Notes under the pieces: model-generated
The model's input: the letters and a program-made list of their open reading frames with translations, nothing else
Database searches by the model: none
Told to the model about the DNA's origin: nothing
Translations under genes and position numbers: made by a program
From: Lingula anatina
Lineage: Eukaryota > Animalia > Brachiopoda
DNA length: 64,000 nt
Reading direction: 5' to 3'
NCBI GenBank assembly: GCA_051362555.1
Contig: CM120648.1
Location: forward strand, 10,040,587-10,104,586
Shown here: positions 9,050-62,279 of the stretch, in pieces
How positions within the stretch are numbered: position 1 is the stretch's first letter
How the letters are laid out: the number at the start of each line of letters is the position of its first letter

Positions 9050-9247
9050 TGTTCTCCTGCTCACGTAGACCGGTGCTGTAACAGGTCATAGTACATGTTT
9101 ATATATCCAGGAAAGTCGCTGCCCAGGTTTTTATTGGTACGAAGAATACAATGTGCTGATTGGCTTTGAGTCATTTGGATTCACAGTCAGTGATAAGTGG
9201 TCCCTGGGAAGTGTTAGTTTCAGACTCTGACGGTCGAGGAGTAGTAG
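9050..9247 (+). promoter_or_regulatory. Type-A promoter and non-coding exon 1 of APOL-like unit A
   Basis: Block repeated at about 13.5, 21.5 and 26.0 kb. CTGATTGGCT (NF-Y/CCAAT) at 9156-9165 and donor AG|gtaagt at 9248. TSS position is inferred. Confidence 0.55.
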
Positions 9248-9585
9248 GTAAGTTTGAAATACGGCGAATATGAAATGTGTCACTTTTGACTGGTGTTTCT
9301 GAAAGCAGTGTATATGACACAAATTGGTTTTCTAATAAAATTAACATGTTGCTACACGGTATATGTGCAGTAATATAATTCGCACGATTCGAAATCTAAC
9401 CCTTTACTTTTCATATGACAAAAGCCAGACGTGCGAAATGTTTCTGTAAAAATGTGATGCACTTGATTTTCTCGTTCATTGCCCACATTTCAAAATATCG
9501 CGTGTAATGTGCGCGCTGTTTTTGAAATATTCTGCAATAATAATAAGTTTTGGTTTTCTTTTTCTAAAGTGTTCTAAGACTCGGG

Positions 9586-9778
9586 ATGGCGTCTTCGAAC
9601 ACTACAGGTAGTGAGGAAGAAGTAGGGAAAGTAGACTGCGATCAGGACGAGGTTCTAGAGTTGGGTAGAGAGTTGGAAAACGAGTGTCACGAGCTTGTTG
9701 AAAGCGCCAAAGAAGCCTCCAAATATCTGCATTCTCTTGCCGACGAAATTGACGAGCATTACAAAAGATGTAACAGAG
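9586..9778 (+). CDS. APOL-like gene A, coding exon 1
   Basis: ATG 9586 after acceptor aaag (9569). Encodes MASSNTTG...LHSLADEIDEHYKRCNR-G. Phase-1 donor G|gtaac at 9779. Paralogous exons elsewhere in the window. Confidence 0.85.
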
Positions 9779-57149: not shown

Positions 57150-58900
57150 AAAGGGAGTTATAAATATTAGTTGCCAATTATCATTGCTTAATATATGCGT
57201 TTAGGTTTAATTCTTCGTTGAGTTCCTCTAGAGAGAGGAAATTTCAAACATCATTTATAATATCATTAATGTAGATAAAACATTTTTGCACCATTTTTAT
57301 GGAAAACATTTTTTTCGTTTATTTTGATTTTGAGTTTTTCCATAATGGTTCTGATAGGATTTCTTCTGGGGTTACAATGTTTGTTCTGAATTTTACTCAA
57401 GGAATCAATAACTTTTTGTCAAAATGGGTTTTTAGTTGCTTGTAGTGTTTTAATCCAGATTTTGTGACATATTCTATTACCCCCAATTCCTGACAGTTCT
57501 CTGGGAAAAGCGTTTTCGACTTACTTTATTTTCTTCATCAAGAAGTCTTTTTAGTCATGAAAGTTTCAGTGCCTTCGTAAAAAGTTTTATCTGTGGACAA
57601 GGGGTCTCTCTGTCGTACGCCCATTTTCACCATAAAGAACTCCGAAAGATGGTAATTTTTGTATCATGGTGCGACCAAAATTAAAGAAAGATTTTCAAAT
57701 ATGCCTTTTTGTAATCGAGGAGAAGCTCTTTCTGTTAAGACGTACACCAGTCTGATGCATTCTCCCATAAATCGGCCTTTTACAAATCGAAACTGTGTAT
57801 CGCTTATTTGTTTTTGTTTTTTTTTTTTTTTTTTCAAAAAAAAAATGTTCATGCGGTTTGCAATACAGGCTGAGAAAATTTTATAATCAACATTTCGCAG
57901 TGAAATACATCTCCATTTATTCAAATGGTCTTTATCTTTTCCCGCCTTAGCTAGACAGGTTATGAGGCCTTGCCTCTGACTTACATACATGTATATTGAC
58001 ATAAATTGTCCAATGAATGAAACGTGGAATGAGCGTACAATGAATTGTTTCAAGTCTAGTCGGACTAGAATAATTTATAGAATTCTACTGTGTATCCGTC
58101 GATACCAGGTGATCGGCCATTCTCCGTTTTCGTCAAAGCTTTATGGCATTCCAATATAATAATAATTTCTTTCTCCATATAGTCGCATTCTTCATCCGTT
58201 AATTTATTAATATGGGGAATGAGGGTTTTTTATAATATTTTTATTCTTTAATAATATCGTCTAATTTCGCCAATTTTGTCTTATCAGCTTTGACTAATTT
58301 TGCAATAGTTTTTTTTCTGTATAATTTCTCTTTCCTAGATTGCTGAGGTATCTACTTCTTTTCTCTTATTCAACTTTCCATCTGGATTTTGTTCTAATAA
58401 TTATTTCTTCATCTTCTTTTCTCTAGTTCTTTCAGCAATATTTCTAATCTACCAATTTCGTCTCTTAGGAAGTCAGAATCCGGGTGTTTTTTCTTTACTT
58501 TTTCTTTTTTATTACATTTTTTGTATCGTAAATATTTTTTTTTGTTTCTCCCCTGATCATTGTTTTCAGCGTTTACCATAGGAGCTGATAATCTATACTA
58601 TAGTCAACTTTTCCTGTATCGCCCATTTCATTAACTTACAATTGTGCACTGGTCTACAACGTCCCGTATACATTTTGTCTAAAATGGATTGCCACCCTCT
58701 ACTATTTGACATGTATGAGCAGAATCCGACCTCTGCTCCCCACTCTTGCCTCCTAAATGTTTCATTATTCTTAATGATGTGGATATCTATTAGGGATGTT
58801 ATGTCATAATTTGCTCTACTTCTGACAAAAAAGTCCTTCTTTTAATCGGGTATATTGCATCATTTTTTCCGTGCGATCAGCCATCCAGGTGACTTTAAGA
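57150..58900 (-). mobile_element. Degenerate L1/Tx1-type LINE ORF2 (reverse transcriptase) fragment
   Basis: SPGIDGYTVEFYK, GLITCLAK.GKD....KWRCISLRNVDYKIFSACIANRM, Q..FVKGRFMGECIRL and PLWKNSKIKI motifs, with frameshifts. Confidence 0.85.
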
Positions 58901-61716
58901 GTTTCTGCCGCATACTTATATCCGGCAGGAATTATATAACATTGTATAAATAGAAGATTTATGTATACACATGTGTTTCATATATACTGTGATGTAGTTG
59001 TGCTGATACATGTAACTACTGACCTGAATCTGACTGATTCGTTTACGTACGCACTCCGACTTTCACTCGCATTTTCATTTTCATACATAAGCAGTTTTGC
59101 ATCTTCTTCAGACATCTCAATTCATTGACGTGGTCATTTCTCAAAAATAACTACCCTTTAGTGAATTACAGTACGTACGTTTTCTTTGAGGGATTAGGGT
59201 TTTTATAATATTTTTTATTCCTAATAATATCGTCTAATTTCGTTTATTGTGTCTTATCAGCTTTGACTAATTTTGCAATAGTTTTTGCATTTTCATTTTC
59301 ATACATAGGCAGTTTTGCATTCTCTGCAGACATCAATTCATTGACTTGGTCATTTACCCATCCACAAGAGTCTCCATCACACATAACTGCATTTAGGGCT
59401 ACATCGGAAAAAATATATTGTATTTAATGGACTTGGTCAAAGACACGTGCATGATGATGGTGCATAAAATAATATTAATAATGTTTAGAGACATAAAAAC
59501 CAATACAATTGCTCATGTGGAAATACGGAAAATGCACAGAACTTCTGGTGGATGGGGTTAAAAGTCATATCTTAAAGATGCTAGTGTTTGAAAAATAATT
59601 TTAAAAAAATTATATAAAAAATAACAAAAATTCCAATAAAGCTGCTATTCAATAAAATAAATCTAGCTCTATTAACAAGATATGAATAACCTCACTGAGT
59701 TTGAGAATAATAAGGCACTGTTATTCATCTGTAGCATTAATGTTGGCGTGACACAAATTATTTTCTGTTGTAAATTTATTTGCAATATTAAATAGCATTG
59801 ACCCGCATAATTATCACCGATTCCTAATTATGTGACAAAGTAAGAGAGCTAATCCTTTACAGGGAAATATCAACGAGTGTTTTTGTAATCTCACCTAATG
59901 GCCACTTGAAAATAAATTACTAGGCAAGTGACTAGACCTGAATTTAGTTAGTGATTACCCAAGGGGCAGTGTCATACTGCACTGACCACTATCCATACAG
60001 TACCATCATATAGCACTCTGTAGAACTGCATTGCTTAAAAAAAAGGAAACAATCACACTGAATTTACAACACAAGCTGCACTTTTCAGTAAGTACAATAA
60101 TTAAGTCACGTGGTTTTCCCTTGATGGTAATCCTGGCAGCTGTGTCCAAAATAGGCTTTTCTTCAACTTTTATGCAATATATCATAATAATCAACAGCAT
60201 AATGACCATCAGTTTTTAATAATAAAGTAAAAGTATCATGGATATTTAGAAAATGTGGTTAGCAAAGGTCTTCAAGCCAATTTTTAGCTGAGGGGAAGAG
60301 GGATGAAAACGTGGGCTTAGAGAAAAAAGCAGTTATTTTAACAACACGGTAAGATAACATTTGATCTTCATGCAATTGGGGCAGAGAATACCTGTAGAAA
60401 TCATAGGAGCATGACATGAAAACTTGTCACGGAACTTAAAGGTGAGAAATCGTGCTTAATTTGCAGTCAATTGGTTTTGAAATGTATGTTGCATCGACCG
60501 CTAGCGTGGCAAAGAGCGTCAGGGGAAAATAATTCCCGGAAAGCTATTAATCGTTGTCATGTGTAATTTTTGCATGTATGCAATCTGTTATGTCCATAAC
60601 TAAGTGATATTGGGTGATTAATGGTATGTGCTGCAATTATAAGGATGTACAAGAATCTTTGAAGGACCTTGAGAAAACCAGAAAGTAGTTCGCAACTGAC
60701 AACTGAACCGTACCGATCCACGACTGCTGTGCAAAGATGAATCTTTTTAAAAATATTGTGACAATTTTTAGATGTTTATATGTCCATCTGACATGAAATT
60801 CTACACATATGATCACACTAATTCACCTATTACATTGGGGGTAAGCACTAACCACTGACAAATGCCATGACAAAGGTGACGTTCTGACAGCCTCTTATCT
60901 GAGAGCTAAAAATCACATGCAAAAGAGACTGGCTATCAATTGCCTCAGGCTGGCAATCAATCGTCTTGAGAAACTGATCATATTATATCTTATCTCAGAA
61001 GCGCTTTTCCGACTGAGTATTGCATAATAATGTTAATTATTAGTAACTGAAGCTAGTCTTACCCCTGTATTTACCTGTCAGCTTTGTGATCGACTCACCT
61101 GAATTCTCGTTTCATCTTTTTGGGAAGATCTTATCAGTGAAAAGTGCTTTCACCATCAAAATGCTATGCTTGACCGATGAATGCATCACATTTTATTGTA
61201 CATTTGCACATTTTTCTTTCTATGCTATTAGGCTTTTAAAATGTGCAATAGTGTGGGATTGCCGAGCAGTGTCATTGCAGCAAGGGGAGAAACAGAGAAA
61301 CTGAGATGCTGGCATTGTCAGAAATGACAGAGCTCCTTCTAGTTGTAAATATATGTACATTGATGATCACTCAGGTCCACGCCTTACACCACTACACGTC
61401 ACTTCCGGCACAATCCGTCTCCTCCGGTACCCTTTATTAATTGGAAACGACTCGCTCGCGCTGCTACTTAATTACGCCGCAGGGCACAGGCCGTGATCAC
61501 TAGCTACCGCCAATGGACTTTTTGAATTTGGATTTTTCATGTGAACGATGCCTTAGATCGTCCATAATTGTTTAGAGTTAAGATTTTCCGACTGATCTTT
61601 TTTTTTTTAAAGATTATCGTGTATTTAAATTTTTATTCTCATATTTCACTGTATCACCTATTTAATGTAGAAATAGTTGAGACCCGTAATGTTTCAGGTT
61701 TTTTACCAAATTTCAG

Positions 61717-62279
61717 GAAAATGTGCCGGTTCTATTGTTTCTCTGTTGGCGGTCCGTTTTATAGCTGCAGGCTTTCCTGCATCTATAGTGATTACGCCGG
61801 TCCTTGCCGCTGGCGGACTTCTGAGTGGCTTTGGAGGCATGGCAACCGGCATTTCGGGAATAAATGAGTATTACTCCACCAGATCAAAGTGCGAAACGGC
61901 ACAGATGGCAGTTGATACCTTTATTGCGAGGTTCAAAGCATATGAAGAGACCTTAGAGAGGCTTAAAAAGTTGCTCCGATCTCCTGGTGTCTTTTCTGCC
62001 GTTAGACATAGAGGTTTGTATCCATTTTCGAGTAAAATTAGGCTCTTAGAGGGTTTAAGCGTTGCAAGCGGCGCTATCATGATTTTACGTGGTTTTGACA
62101 AAGGGCTTCGACTTCTGCACATGGGAGCTGTAGGAAGCGTGCTGGCGGCACCCTTTGATGTTTACACCTTAGCACAGTCCTGCGTTAAGATGTATCGCGG
62201 GACCGGGTCTGAACAGGCTGATAAGATCAGAGAACTCGCTAAAGAAATAAATGACTTGGCCCAGCAGTTCAAACAATGA
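61717..62279 (+). CDS. APOL-like gene F, last exon (242 aa from ATG 49199; 310 aa from ATG 48366)
   Basis: Acceptor tttcag|GA, in phase with 49364. Encodes KCAGSIVSLLAVRFIAAGF...SKCETAQMAV...PFDVYTL...GSEQADKIRELA. Intron ends are homologous to those of other units. Confidence 0.8.

Follow-up and report, generated by a model that had tools for sequence, protein, structure and literature searches.

Among described systems, the closest to the genes considered here is the human apolipoprotein L (ApoL; PF05461) cluster, APOL1-6. As described in the excerpted parts of PMC8358165, this is a tandem cluster in which most members lack a signal peptide and whose products carry a pre-hairpin helix, a two-helix insertion hairpin, a C-terminal hydrophobic helix with an Asp residue, and a zipper. 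Two further human proteins, APOL6 and APOLD1, lack the N-terminal HC1-LZ1 region and have a hairpin free of acidic residues (excerpts of PMC11726835). Here, we analyzed 64,000 nt of the brachiopod Lingula anatina (contig CM120648.1 of GCA_051362555.1, positions 10,040,587 to 10,104,586; hereafter, the window) and found an array of ApoL-family genes that shares all of these features. Our results support a Lingula-specific tandem cluster of compact ApoL genes undergoing birth-and-death turnover. The array is a member of a widespread, known family and not a new system; what is new here is a pair of copies with statistical signs of positive selection, C and G, in which a near-invariant hairpin turn has been lost.

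Compared with APOL1-6, the Lingula proteins lack the N-terminal four-helix bundle, differ at the gating Tyr and Glu positions, and arose by independent expansion; their identity to mammalian ApoL repeats is 21-23%. They lack the extra C-terminal membrane anchor of APOL6, and they keep the Asp at the pore position, whereas APOLD1 is described as having no gating residues (excerpts of PMC11726835). Annotated ApoL-like proteins of Mytilus, Mercenaria, Ruditapes, Haliotis, Oculina, Orbicella, Stylophora and Acanthaster have the same compact domain, with 27-38% identity to copy A of the window. Such annotated invertebrate proteins often occur as several copies per species with neighboring locus numbers; they fall in separate clades, and the hairpin remodeling of C and G was not seen in them.

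A one-orientation array of ApoL genes

Repeat and self-alignment searches placed seven ApoL-family units between 9.05 and 62.28 kb of the window, every one on the + strand. A long last coding exon is present in six copies (A, B, C, D, E and G), and a short coding exon precedes it in five. In all five copies with both exons, the same phase-1 intron splits a Gly codon (AG/GT...AG/GAAAA), although its length varies from 322 nt in E through 1057 in A, 1656 in B and 3803 in C to 12,352 in G. The gene models of A, C and G, assembled from window coordinates, have open frames: spliced A (9586-9778 + 10836-11470) encodes 275 aa, spliced C (29376-29526 + 33330-33886) encodes 235 aa and is identical to LOC106174974, and spliced G (49199-49364 + 61717-62279) encodes 242 aa. 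B is frameshifted, D is an orphan last exon, and the start of E is lost or moved. The initial annotation had described a seven-unit array in one orientation with a common phase-1 intron, in which intact, frameshifted, coding-sequence-deleted, orphan-exon and chimeric stages of birth-and-death coexist; the searches and gene models agree with this description, and each stage was seen in units of the window.

The damaged copies differ in how they decayed. In the first exon of B, 14574-14688 matches 14697-14811, an internal duplication. When the emptied unit is aligned to unit A by blastn, the match breaks off at A 9485 and resumes at A 11710 between window positions 22220 and 22251, so that the stretch gone corresponds to about A 9490-11700. 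D lies 370 nt downstream of C and lacks both the first 18 codons of its exon and a first exon of its own. An in-frame ATG (34242) and an AG (34253-34254) in phase with the first exon of C precede it, and alternative splicing could yield a hairpin-shortened D product; none of the RNA reads supports splicing of D to the C first exon. In E, the codon matching the start Met of the paralog LOC106169423 is AGG (37795), and this copy is not plainly intact: a 323-aa frame would exist only if transcription begins upstream of the ATG at 36673.

Upstream of G, the second type II promoter module has a dead splice donor, CT for GT. A chimeric exon in the same region would give G 68 extra in-frame residues if joined to 49183; no match to its 47 novel codons turned up in the window or among the proteins retrieved. 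Because homology to the A and C introns is found at 50394-50808 and from 61641 onward, about 10.8 kb was inserted into the G intron. A degenerate reverse-transcriptase fragment (57664-58074, - strand; RVT_1 E 1.3e-4, below cut-off) lies inside this insert.

Family assignment and phylogeny

The curated cut-off of the Pfam ApoL profile (PF05461) is 25.9 bits, and three of the six last-exon frames passed it (A, 32.7; D, 33.5; E, 41.3 bits), as did P0001, an A-type full protein (59.7 bits). G (20.1 bits) and B (13.8 bits, post-frameshift frame only) fell below it, and C gave no match, either as last exon or at full length. C and G are, at 38-43% identity to A, nested in the same clade. A feature-based search returned a score of 0.97, with all ten best matches being ApoL. 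With G as query, word search retrieved no database protein at E 0.001, and a single-sequence PDB search found no ApoL. The assignment to the ApoL family, proposed before any search, was supported by the Pfam matches of A, D, E and full-length P0001.

For phylogeny, we used 134 rows consisting of the six window copies, named proteins and matches of 225-350 aa, with long fusions trimmed and duplicate records of C excluded. Ten rows labeled Lingula lie on one side of a branch with support of 100, with bivalve sequences nearest, as expected from the lineage-specific expansion that had been suggested. C and G are sisters on long branches (0.55 and 0.51 versus 0.12-0.29). Another Lingula protein, P0069 (LOC106156653), was placed outside the array clade beside abalone sequences, which indicates that the ApoLs of Lingula comprise two or more old lineages, one of which contains the array. 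The further Lingula paralogs LOC106174983, LOC106169414 and LOC106169423 are 60-74% identical to window copies and match none of them, and the cluster may run beyond the window, where copy number is judged from public proteins.

The family profile matched 2,732 clusters at 50% identity. Named ApoL matches came from lampreys, fish and a mammal among vertebrates, from corals, bivalves, abalone and a starfish, and from one amoeba. ApoL genes with neighboring locus numbers are recorded for Haliotis rubra, H. rufescens, Ruditapes and Mercenaria, where adjacency is deduced from the numbering and not from DNA, and Oculina has four ApoL proteins that seemingly belong to one contig, again judged otherwise than from DNA. 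These multiple copies in several corals and molluscs show that expansion is recurrent in invertebrates and not special to the window. The Lingula clade is independent, but its expansion is less singular than the initial annotation suggested. ApoL domains were also found fused to RING fingers (P0056, P0062, P0105, P0044, P0110 and P0121), which are N-terminal in the amoeba Acrasis kona and in lampreys and C-terminal in abalone. These fusions suggest ubiquitin-linked control, and the amoeba protein, if the record is genuine, suggests a pre-animal or transferred ApoL.

A literature search, which covered few subscription papers, found no study of ApoL expansion, arrays or immune function in invertebrates. 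A 2018 survey of Lingula immune genes reportedly exists and could mention the window genes, and a 2009 study is said to have dealt with selection on primate APOL. The main text of PMC8476169, on the antiviral response of Nematostella, does not mention apolipoprotein.

Protein anatomy

The A-type structural model is all helical (20-90, 95-154, 161-203, 211-238 and 244-261). By hydropathy, A has a hairpin at residues 65-113; a second hydrophobic helix spans 204-231, and an amphipathic zipper comes after it. The A last exon encodes the transmembrane hairpin, the middle helices, the pore-lining helix and the zipper. A basic helix is followed by a Gly/Ala-rich hydrophobic hairpin of two helices, whose turn motif is gone in C and G. 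Secreted, trypanolytic APOL1 is marked by a signal peptide and by an acidic hairpin that depends on pH. Neither hallmark was found: hydropathy showed no hydrophobic N-terminus in A, B, C or G, and residues 65-117 of A contain no Asp or Glu. Our earlier claim that no copy has a signal peptide holds, on hydropathy, for these four copies; D would start at the hairpin, and E, in one of its possible forms, opens with a mildly hydrophobic stretch.

Asp226 of A is Asp in 128 of the 134 aligned rows, including all six window copies, and in two of the three mammalian ApoL repeats of P0031. To link its numbering to human APOL1, we relied on what we take to be the corresponding APOL1 motif. Asp226 would occupy the position of APOL1 D348, as placed via PMC8358165 with human APOL1 outside the alignment. 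According to the excerpted parts of that paper, D348, which all of APOL1-6 retain, governs gating and cation selectivity, and insertion takes place at neutral pH in those APOLs whose hairpin has no acidic residues.

Comparisons beyond the family returned little. The family profile reached the APOL2 N-terminal domain weakly, at its end (E 0.044). The top matches to other systems were weak ones to the ClyA-family B components AhlB and SmhB (profile E 0.0015-0.07; Foldseek E 0.075); they span the helix-hairpin-helix half and are non-significant, with a TM-score of ~0.3. This resemblance may be compositional convergence, as viral fusion peptides and designed coiled coils score alike. Structure rows from the ESM Atlas were below threshold.

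Signs of positive selection in copies C and G

C and G are the only ones of the six copies without the Thr-x-Gly hairpin turn, whose Thr is present in 125 and Gly in 131 of the 134 rows. Both also carry in-frame linker deletions, which shorten their linkers. Among A, B, D and E, the linker had a dN/dS of 0.48-0.84, compared with 0.04-0.33 for the hairpin and 0.18-0.38 for the C-terminal part. Codon-likelihood tests, run with our own implementation on six sequences and 130 well-aligned columns of 225, gave an omega of 1.49-1.68 for the C/G clade and 0.55-0.62 for the background in all six frequency models. The branch-site test with C/G as foreground gave 2dlnL values of 9.3-13.7, compared with 0.0 for the controls with E or A/B/D, and results were similar on 145 and 174 columns. 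When double and triple hits were allowed, 2dlnL was 7.2 (p 0.007). The largest value among 47 null simulations with double hits was 10.1, short of 13.7.

We also made a model-free comparison with non-coding DNA. At first and second codon positions, C and G show 108 differences in 290 (37%) versus 12-23% in seven homologous non-coding segments; for A and B, 44 of 308 such positions differ (14%), and their flanks differ by 20-21%. Differences at fourfold sites (11/33 and 19/71) indicate that the flanks understate neutral divergence somewhat. Simulated, freely drifting frames remained stop-free in 0.9-5% of 1000 runs per distance. Among the paralogs, statistical signs of positive selection were found in the C/G clade only, and not in E or in A/B/D. 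We favor the reading that C and G were remodeled under diversifying selection, with the core of A, B, D and E under purifying selection and their linker drifting.

Promoter modules and RNA reads

Two kinds of promoter/untranslated region (UTR) module recur in the array. Type I modules (at 9.1, 13.6, 21.5 and 26.1 kb) carry a STAT-like site (21538 and 26085), and type II modules (at 26.8, 36.7, 41.4 and 44.3 kb) carry a kappaB-like 10-mer (26774, 36699, 41354 and 44292) just upstream of a TATA-like element. Motifs were called with what we presume to be the kappaB and STAT consensus patterns. Strict kappaB matches numbered seven strand-hits versus 2.2 expected, the copies being paralogous, and the kappaB-like motif of the type II promoters is offered as a lead only. 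The STAT-like sites, likewise paralogous copies, were non-significant as well. We know of no interferon ligand in brachiopods. Public isoforms show that these modules are joined to coding exons: the paralog P0164 reads through the type I UTR exon into the coding exon, and P0195 splices the type II UTR exon onto C. The splice pattern is supported by these two proteins, since both carry UTR exons into the coding exon.

Six of nine raw RNA runs from the same species were aligned; the runs carry no treatment labels, and G lies outside the aligned region. Reads were mostly 85-95% alike to the window, and the RNA junctions listed contained no exon-exon junction across any ApoL intron. Runs X7 and X9 covered D to a depth of ~20-28, and runs X1 and X4 to nearly 0, which shows that some ApoL family member is expressed and varies by sample. 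Reads on the 5' part of D (34283-34381) carry the letters of B at 11 of 11 listed positions, and we therefore dropped the idea that D-aligned reads report expression of D itself; their source is a B-like or mosaic paralog or allele. On B, most reads lack the two extra bases (34/37, 29/33, 18/24 and 1/1) and derive from diverged individuals or a paralog. Other animals therefore have an in-frame transcript that is B-like or a B/D mosaic, from an allele or from another locus. C attracted almost no RNA reads, which may reflect divergence of the sequenced animals. At the UTR exon 26808-26861, the reads of X7 and X9 depart from the window at five letters and continue upstream into unrelated sequence, as would be expected if a related exon is in use at another locus or allele.

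Function and alternative explanations

From their sequence, the products are likely, with a probability of roughly 0.5, intracellular membrane-inserting, cation-leaking or membrane-disrupting defense proteins; the "lytic immune system" of the initial annotation is something that we infer. The soluble protein would be a helical bundle that hides the hairpin. The hairpin would insert at neutral pH on an anionic target membrane, that of an intracellular microbe or of its vacuole, as in human APOL3-5; the C-terminal zipper would oligomerize, and the Asp-bearing helix would line the leak. Remodeling of C and G would most simply serve to reach a different membrane or to escape a microbial inhibitor. 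Consistent with a defense role, "Apolipoprotein L" tops a table of hemocyte-only transcripts in Mytilus (excerpts of PMC4581086), and APOL3 targets the membranes of cytosolic bacteria, killing them (excerpts of PMC12482154).

Several results weigh against this proposal. APOL2, 4 and 5 are reported to be non-cytotoxic although the Asp is present (excerpts of PMC8358165), and APOLD1, which likewise lacks the N-terminal bundle, is considered an unlikely pore former (excerpts of PMC11726835). The four-helix bundle (HC1-LZ1) of APOL1-4 is absent, with Pfam positions 1-65 of 298 unmatched in P0001, and where APOL1 has Y351 and E355, the Lingula proteins have Thr and Ser, Cys or Leu, respectively. 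The A-type model is of middling quality (pLDDT 70, pTM 0.59), and the structural comparison was uninformative: Foldseek found nothing significant (best E 0.075), and VIA-align returned generic helical bundles only, with a designed bundle as best match (Z 12). Within its module, no invariant run is longer than the kappaB-like 10-mer, yet the shuffle P of 0.11 is non-significant. As for selection, counting dN/dS between C and G was 1.10 (95% interval 0.82-1.54), whole-branch omega >1 was significant in five of the six models (p 0.013-0.058), the C/G foreground was picked after seeing the data, and gene conversion is outside the model. Finally, the oyster and coral papers, in the parts excerpted, read ApoL up-regulation as a lipid or osmotic response.

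This last observation belongs to an explanation that we consider unlikely but serious, namely that the proteins act in general membrane remodeling, lipid handling or osmotic stress, as APOLD1 or APOL6 may, and that turnover of the array is plain tandem drift. The compact layout without an N-terminal bundle resembles that of both human proteins (excerpts of PMC11726835), ApoL is raised in oyster salt stress and in sediment-stressed coral (excerpts), and tandem arrays can turn over without an arms race. However, drift leaves unexplained an omega >1 together with open frames in C and G, and the retained Asp sets the Lingula copies apart from APOLD1. Rather improbable, in our estimate, is that the proteins permeabilize the organelle or plasma membranes of their own cell, killing infected or stressed cells and not the microbe. 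Overexpression of APOL3 or APOL6, neither of which has a signal peptide, is cytotoxic (excerpts of PMC8358165), and the RING-ApoL fusions of abalone, lamprey and amoeba suggest tight control of a self-toxic protein, but diversification of the inserting hairpin, as seen in C and G, is less to be expected of an executioner directed at self.

We give little credence to the remaining possibility, that C and G are decoys, regulators or relaxed copies nearing loss and that only A-type copies work. It would account for the lost turn, the shortened linkers, the scores below Pfam detection, the counting dN/dS near 1 and the scarcity of reads on C; against it, both frames are open with in-frame deletions only, the Asp and zipper are kept, and the likelihood tests favor omega >1 over omega = 1. 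Intracellular, membrane-directed defense is the reading that we prefer.

Feature coordinates and neighboring elements

Table 1. ApoL-array features in the window, in window coordinates.
Feature	Position	Strand	Remarks
A promoter and 5' UTR exon, type I module	9058..9247	+	donor 9248; homologous to 13501-13721, 21530-21736, 26039-26187
A first coding exon	9570..9778	+	ATG 9586; 95.5% to LOC106159631 over exon
A last exon	10836..11470	+	Pfam ApoL 32.7 bits; Asp codon 11318; 98% to LOC106159631
B promoter and 5' UTR exon, type I	13501..13694	+	homology to other type I modules
B first coding exon	14548..14880	+	ATG 14565; N-terminal 40 codons duplicated internally
B last exon	16537..17185	+	frameshift, 2 extra bases in CT run near 16631
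Emptied unit, whole coding part deleted	21530..22447	+	promoter, intron start and 3' flank remain; further flank 25156-26006
Type I module, then C type II promoter/5' UTR exon	26032..26861	+	type I at 26032-26187; kappaB-like 26774; donor 26862
Isolated relic of ApoL 3' UTR	28228..28321	+	79% to 33924-34015, 77% to 62309-62404
C first coding exon	29360..29526	+	ATG 29376; identical to LOC106174974
C last exon, fast-evolving	33330..33886	+	hairpin turn deleted; Asp codon 33752 retained
D orphan last exon, 5'-truncated	34255..34847	+	Pfam ApoL 33.5 bits
E upstream exon, type II module	36673..36782	+	kappaB-like 36699; in-frame ATG 36673
E middle exons	37779-37847 and 38005-38153	+	comparison with LOC106169423
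E last exon, open	38476..39119	+	Pfam ApoL 41.3 bits
Two duplicated type II promoter/UTR modules upstream of G	41090..47509	+	41090-42229 90.6% identical to 44034-45174
Chimeric exon	48359..48553	+	ATG 48366; ATG-exon start, 47 unrelated codons, type II UTR-exon end
G first coding exon	49183..49364	+	ATG 49199
G last exon, fast-evolving	61717..62279	+	Pfam ApoL 20.1 bits, below cut-off; hairpin turn altered; Asp codon 62157 retained

Outside the array, an open frame with a PAN/apple domain (549-947, - strand; Pfam PAN_1 22.1 bits) is likely an exon of a neighboring gene on the opposite strand. A dispersed repeat of 200-240 nt occurs in both orientations (88-318, 7031-7232, 7990-8230, 13187-13406 and 25274-25516); its copies are 72-91% alike, and one is self-inverted (MITE-like). 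Many partly fitting RNA reads cover the copy at 13192-13435. Thousands of partly fitting, loose-ended RNA reads fall on a repeat in the introns of A (10470-10652) and C (32191-32370), i.e., a high-copy transcribed element.

Implications

ApoL biology is known almost wholly from mammals. The brachiopod cluster independently repeats the vertebrate pattern of tandem growth, decay and selection, which suggests an ancestral defense role. Database counts underestimate the ApoLs of invertebrates, since the copies that evolve fastest fall under the Pfam threshold. The Lingula copies are minimal ApoLs without the N-terminal bundle, so the parts needed for a pore become testable. Tentatively, and with less confidence than we place in defense itself, ApoL may be an ancient, cell-autonomous lytic weapon that predates interferon and was expanded separately in brachiopods, molluscs, corals and vertebrates, with C and G of Lingula representing an arms-race branch in which the hairpin was rebuilt and the pore residue kept. 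If this is true, the C/G pair would be a natural experiment on change of ApoL target specificity.

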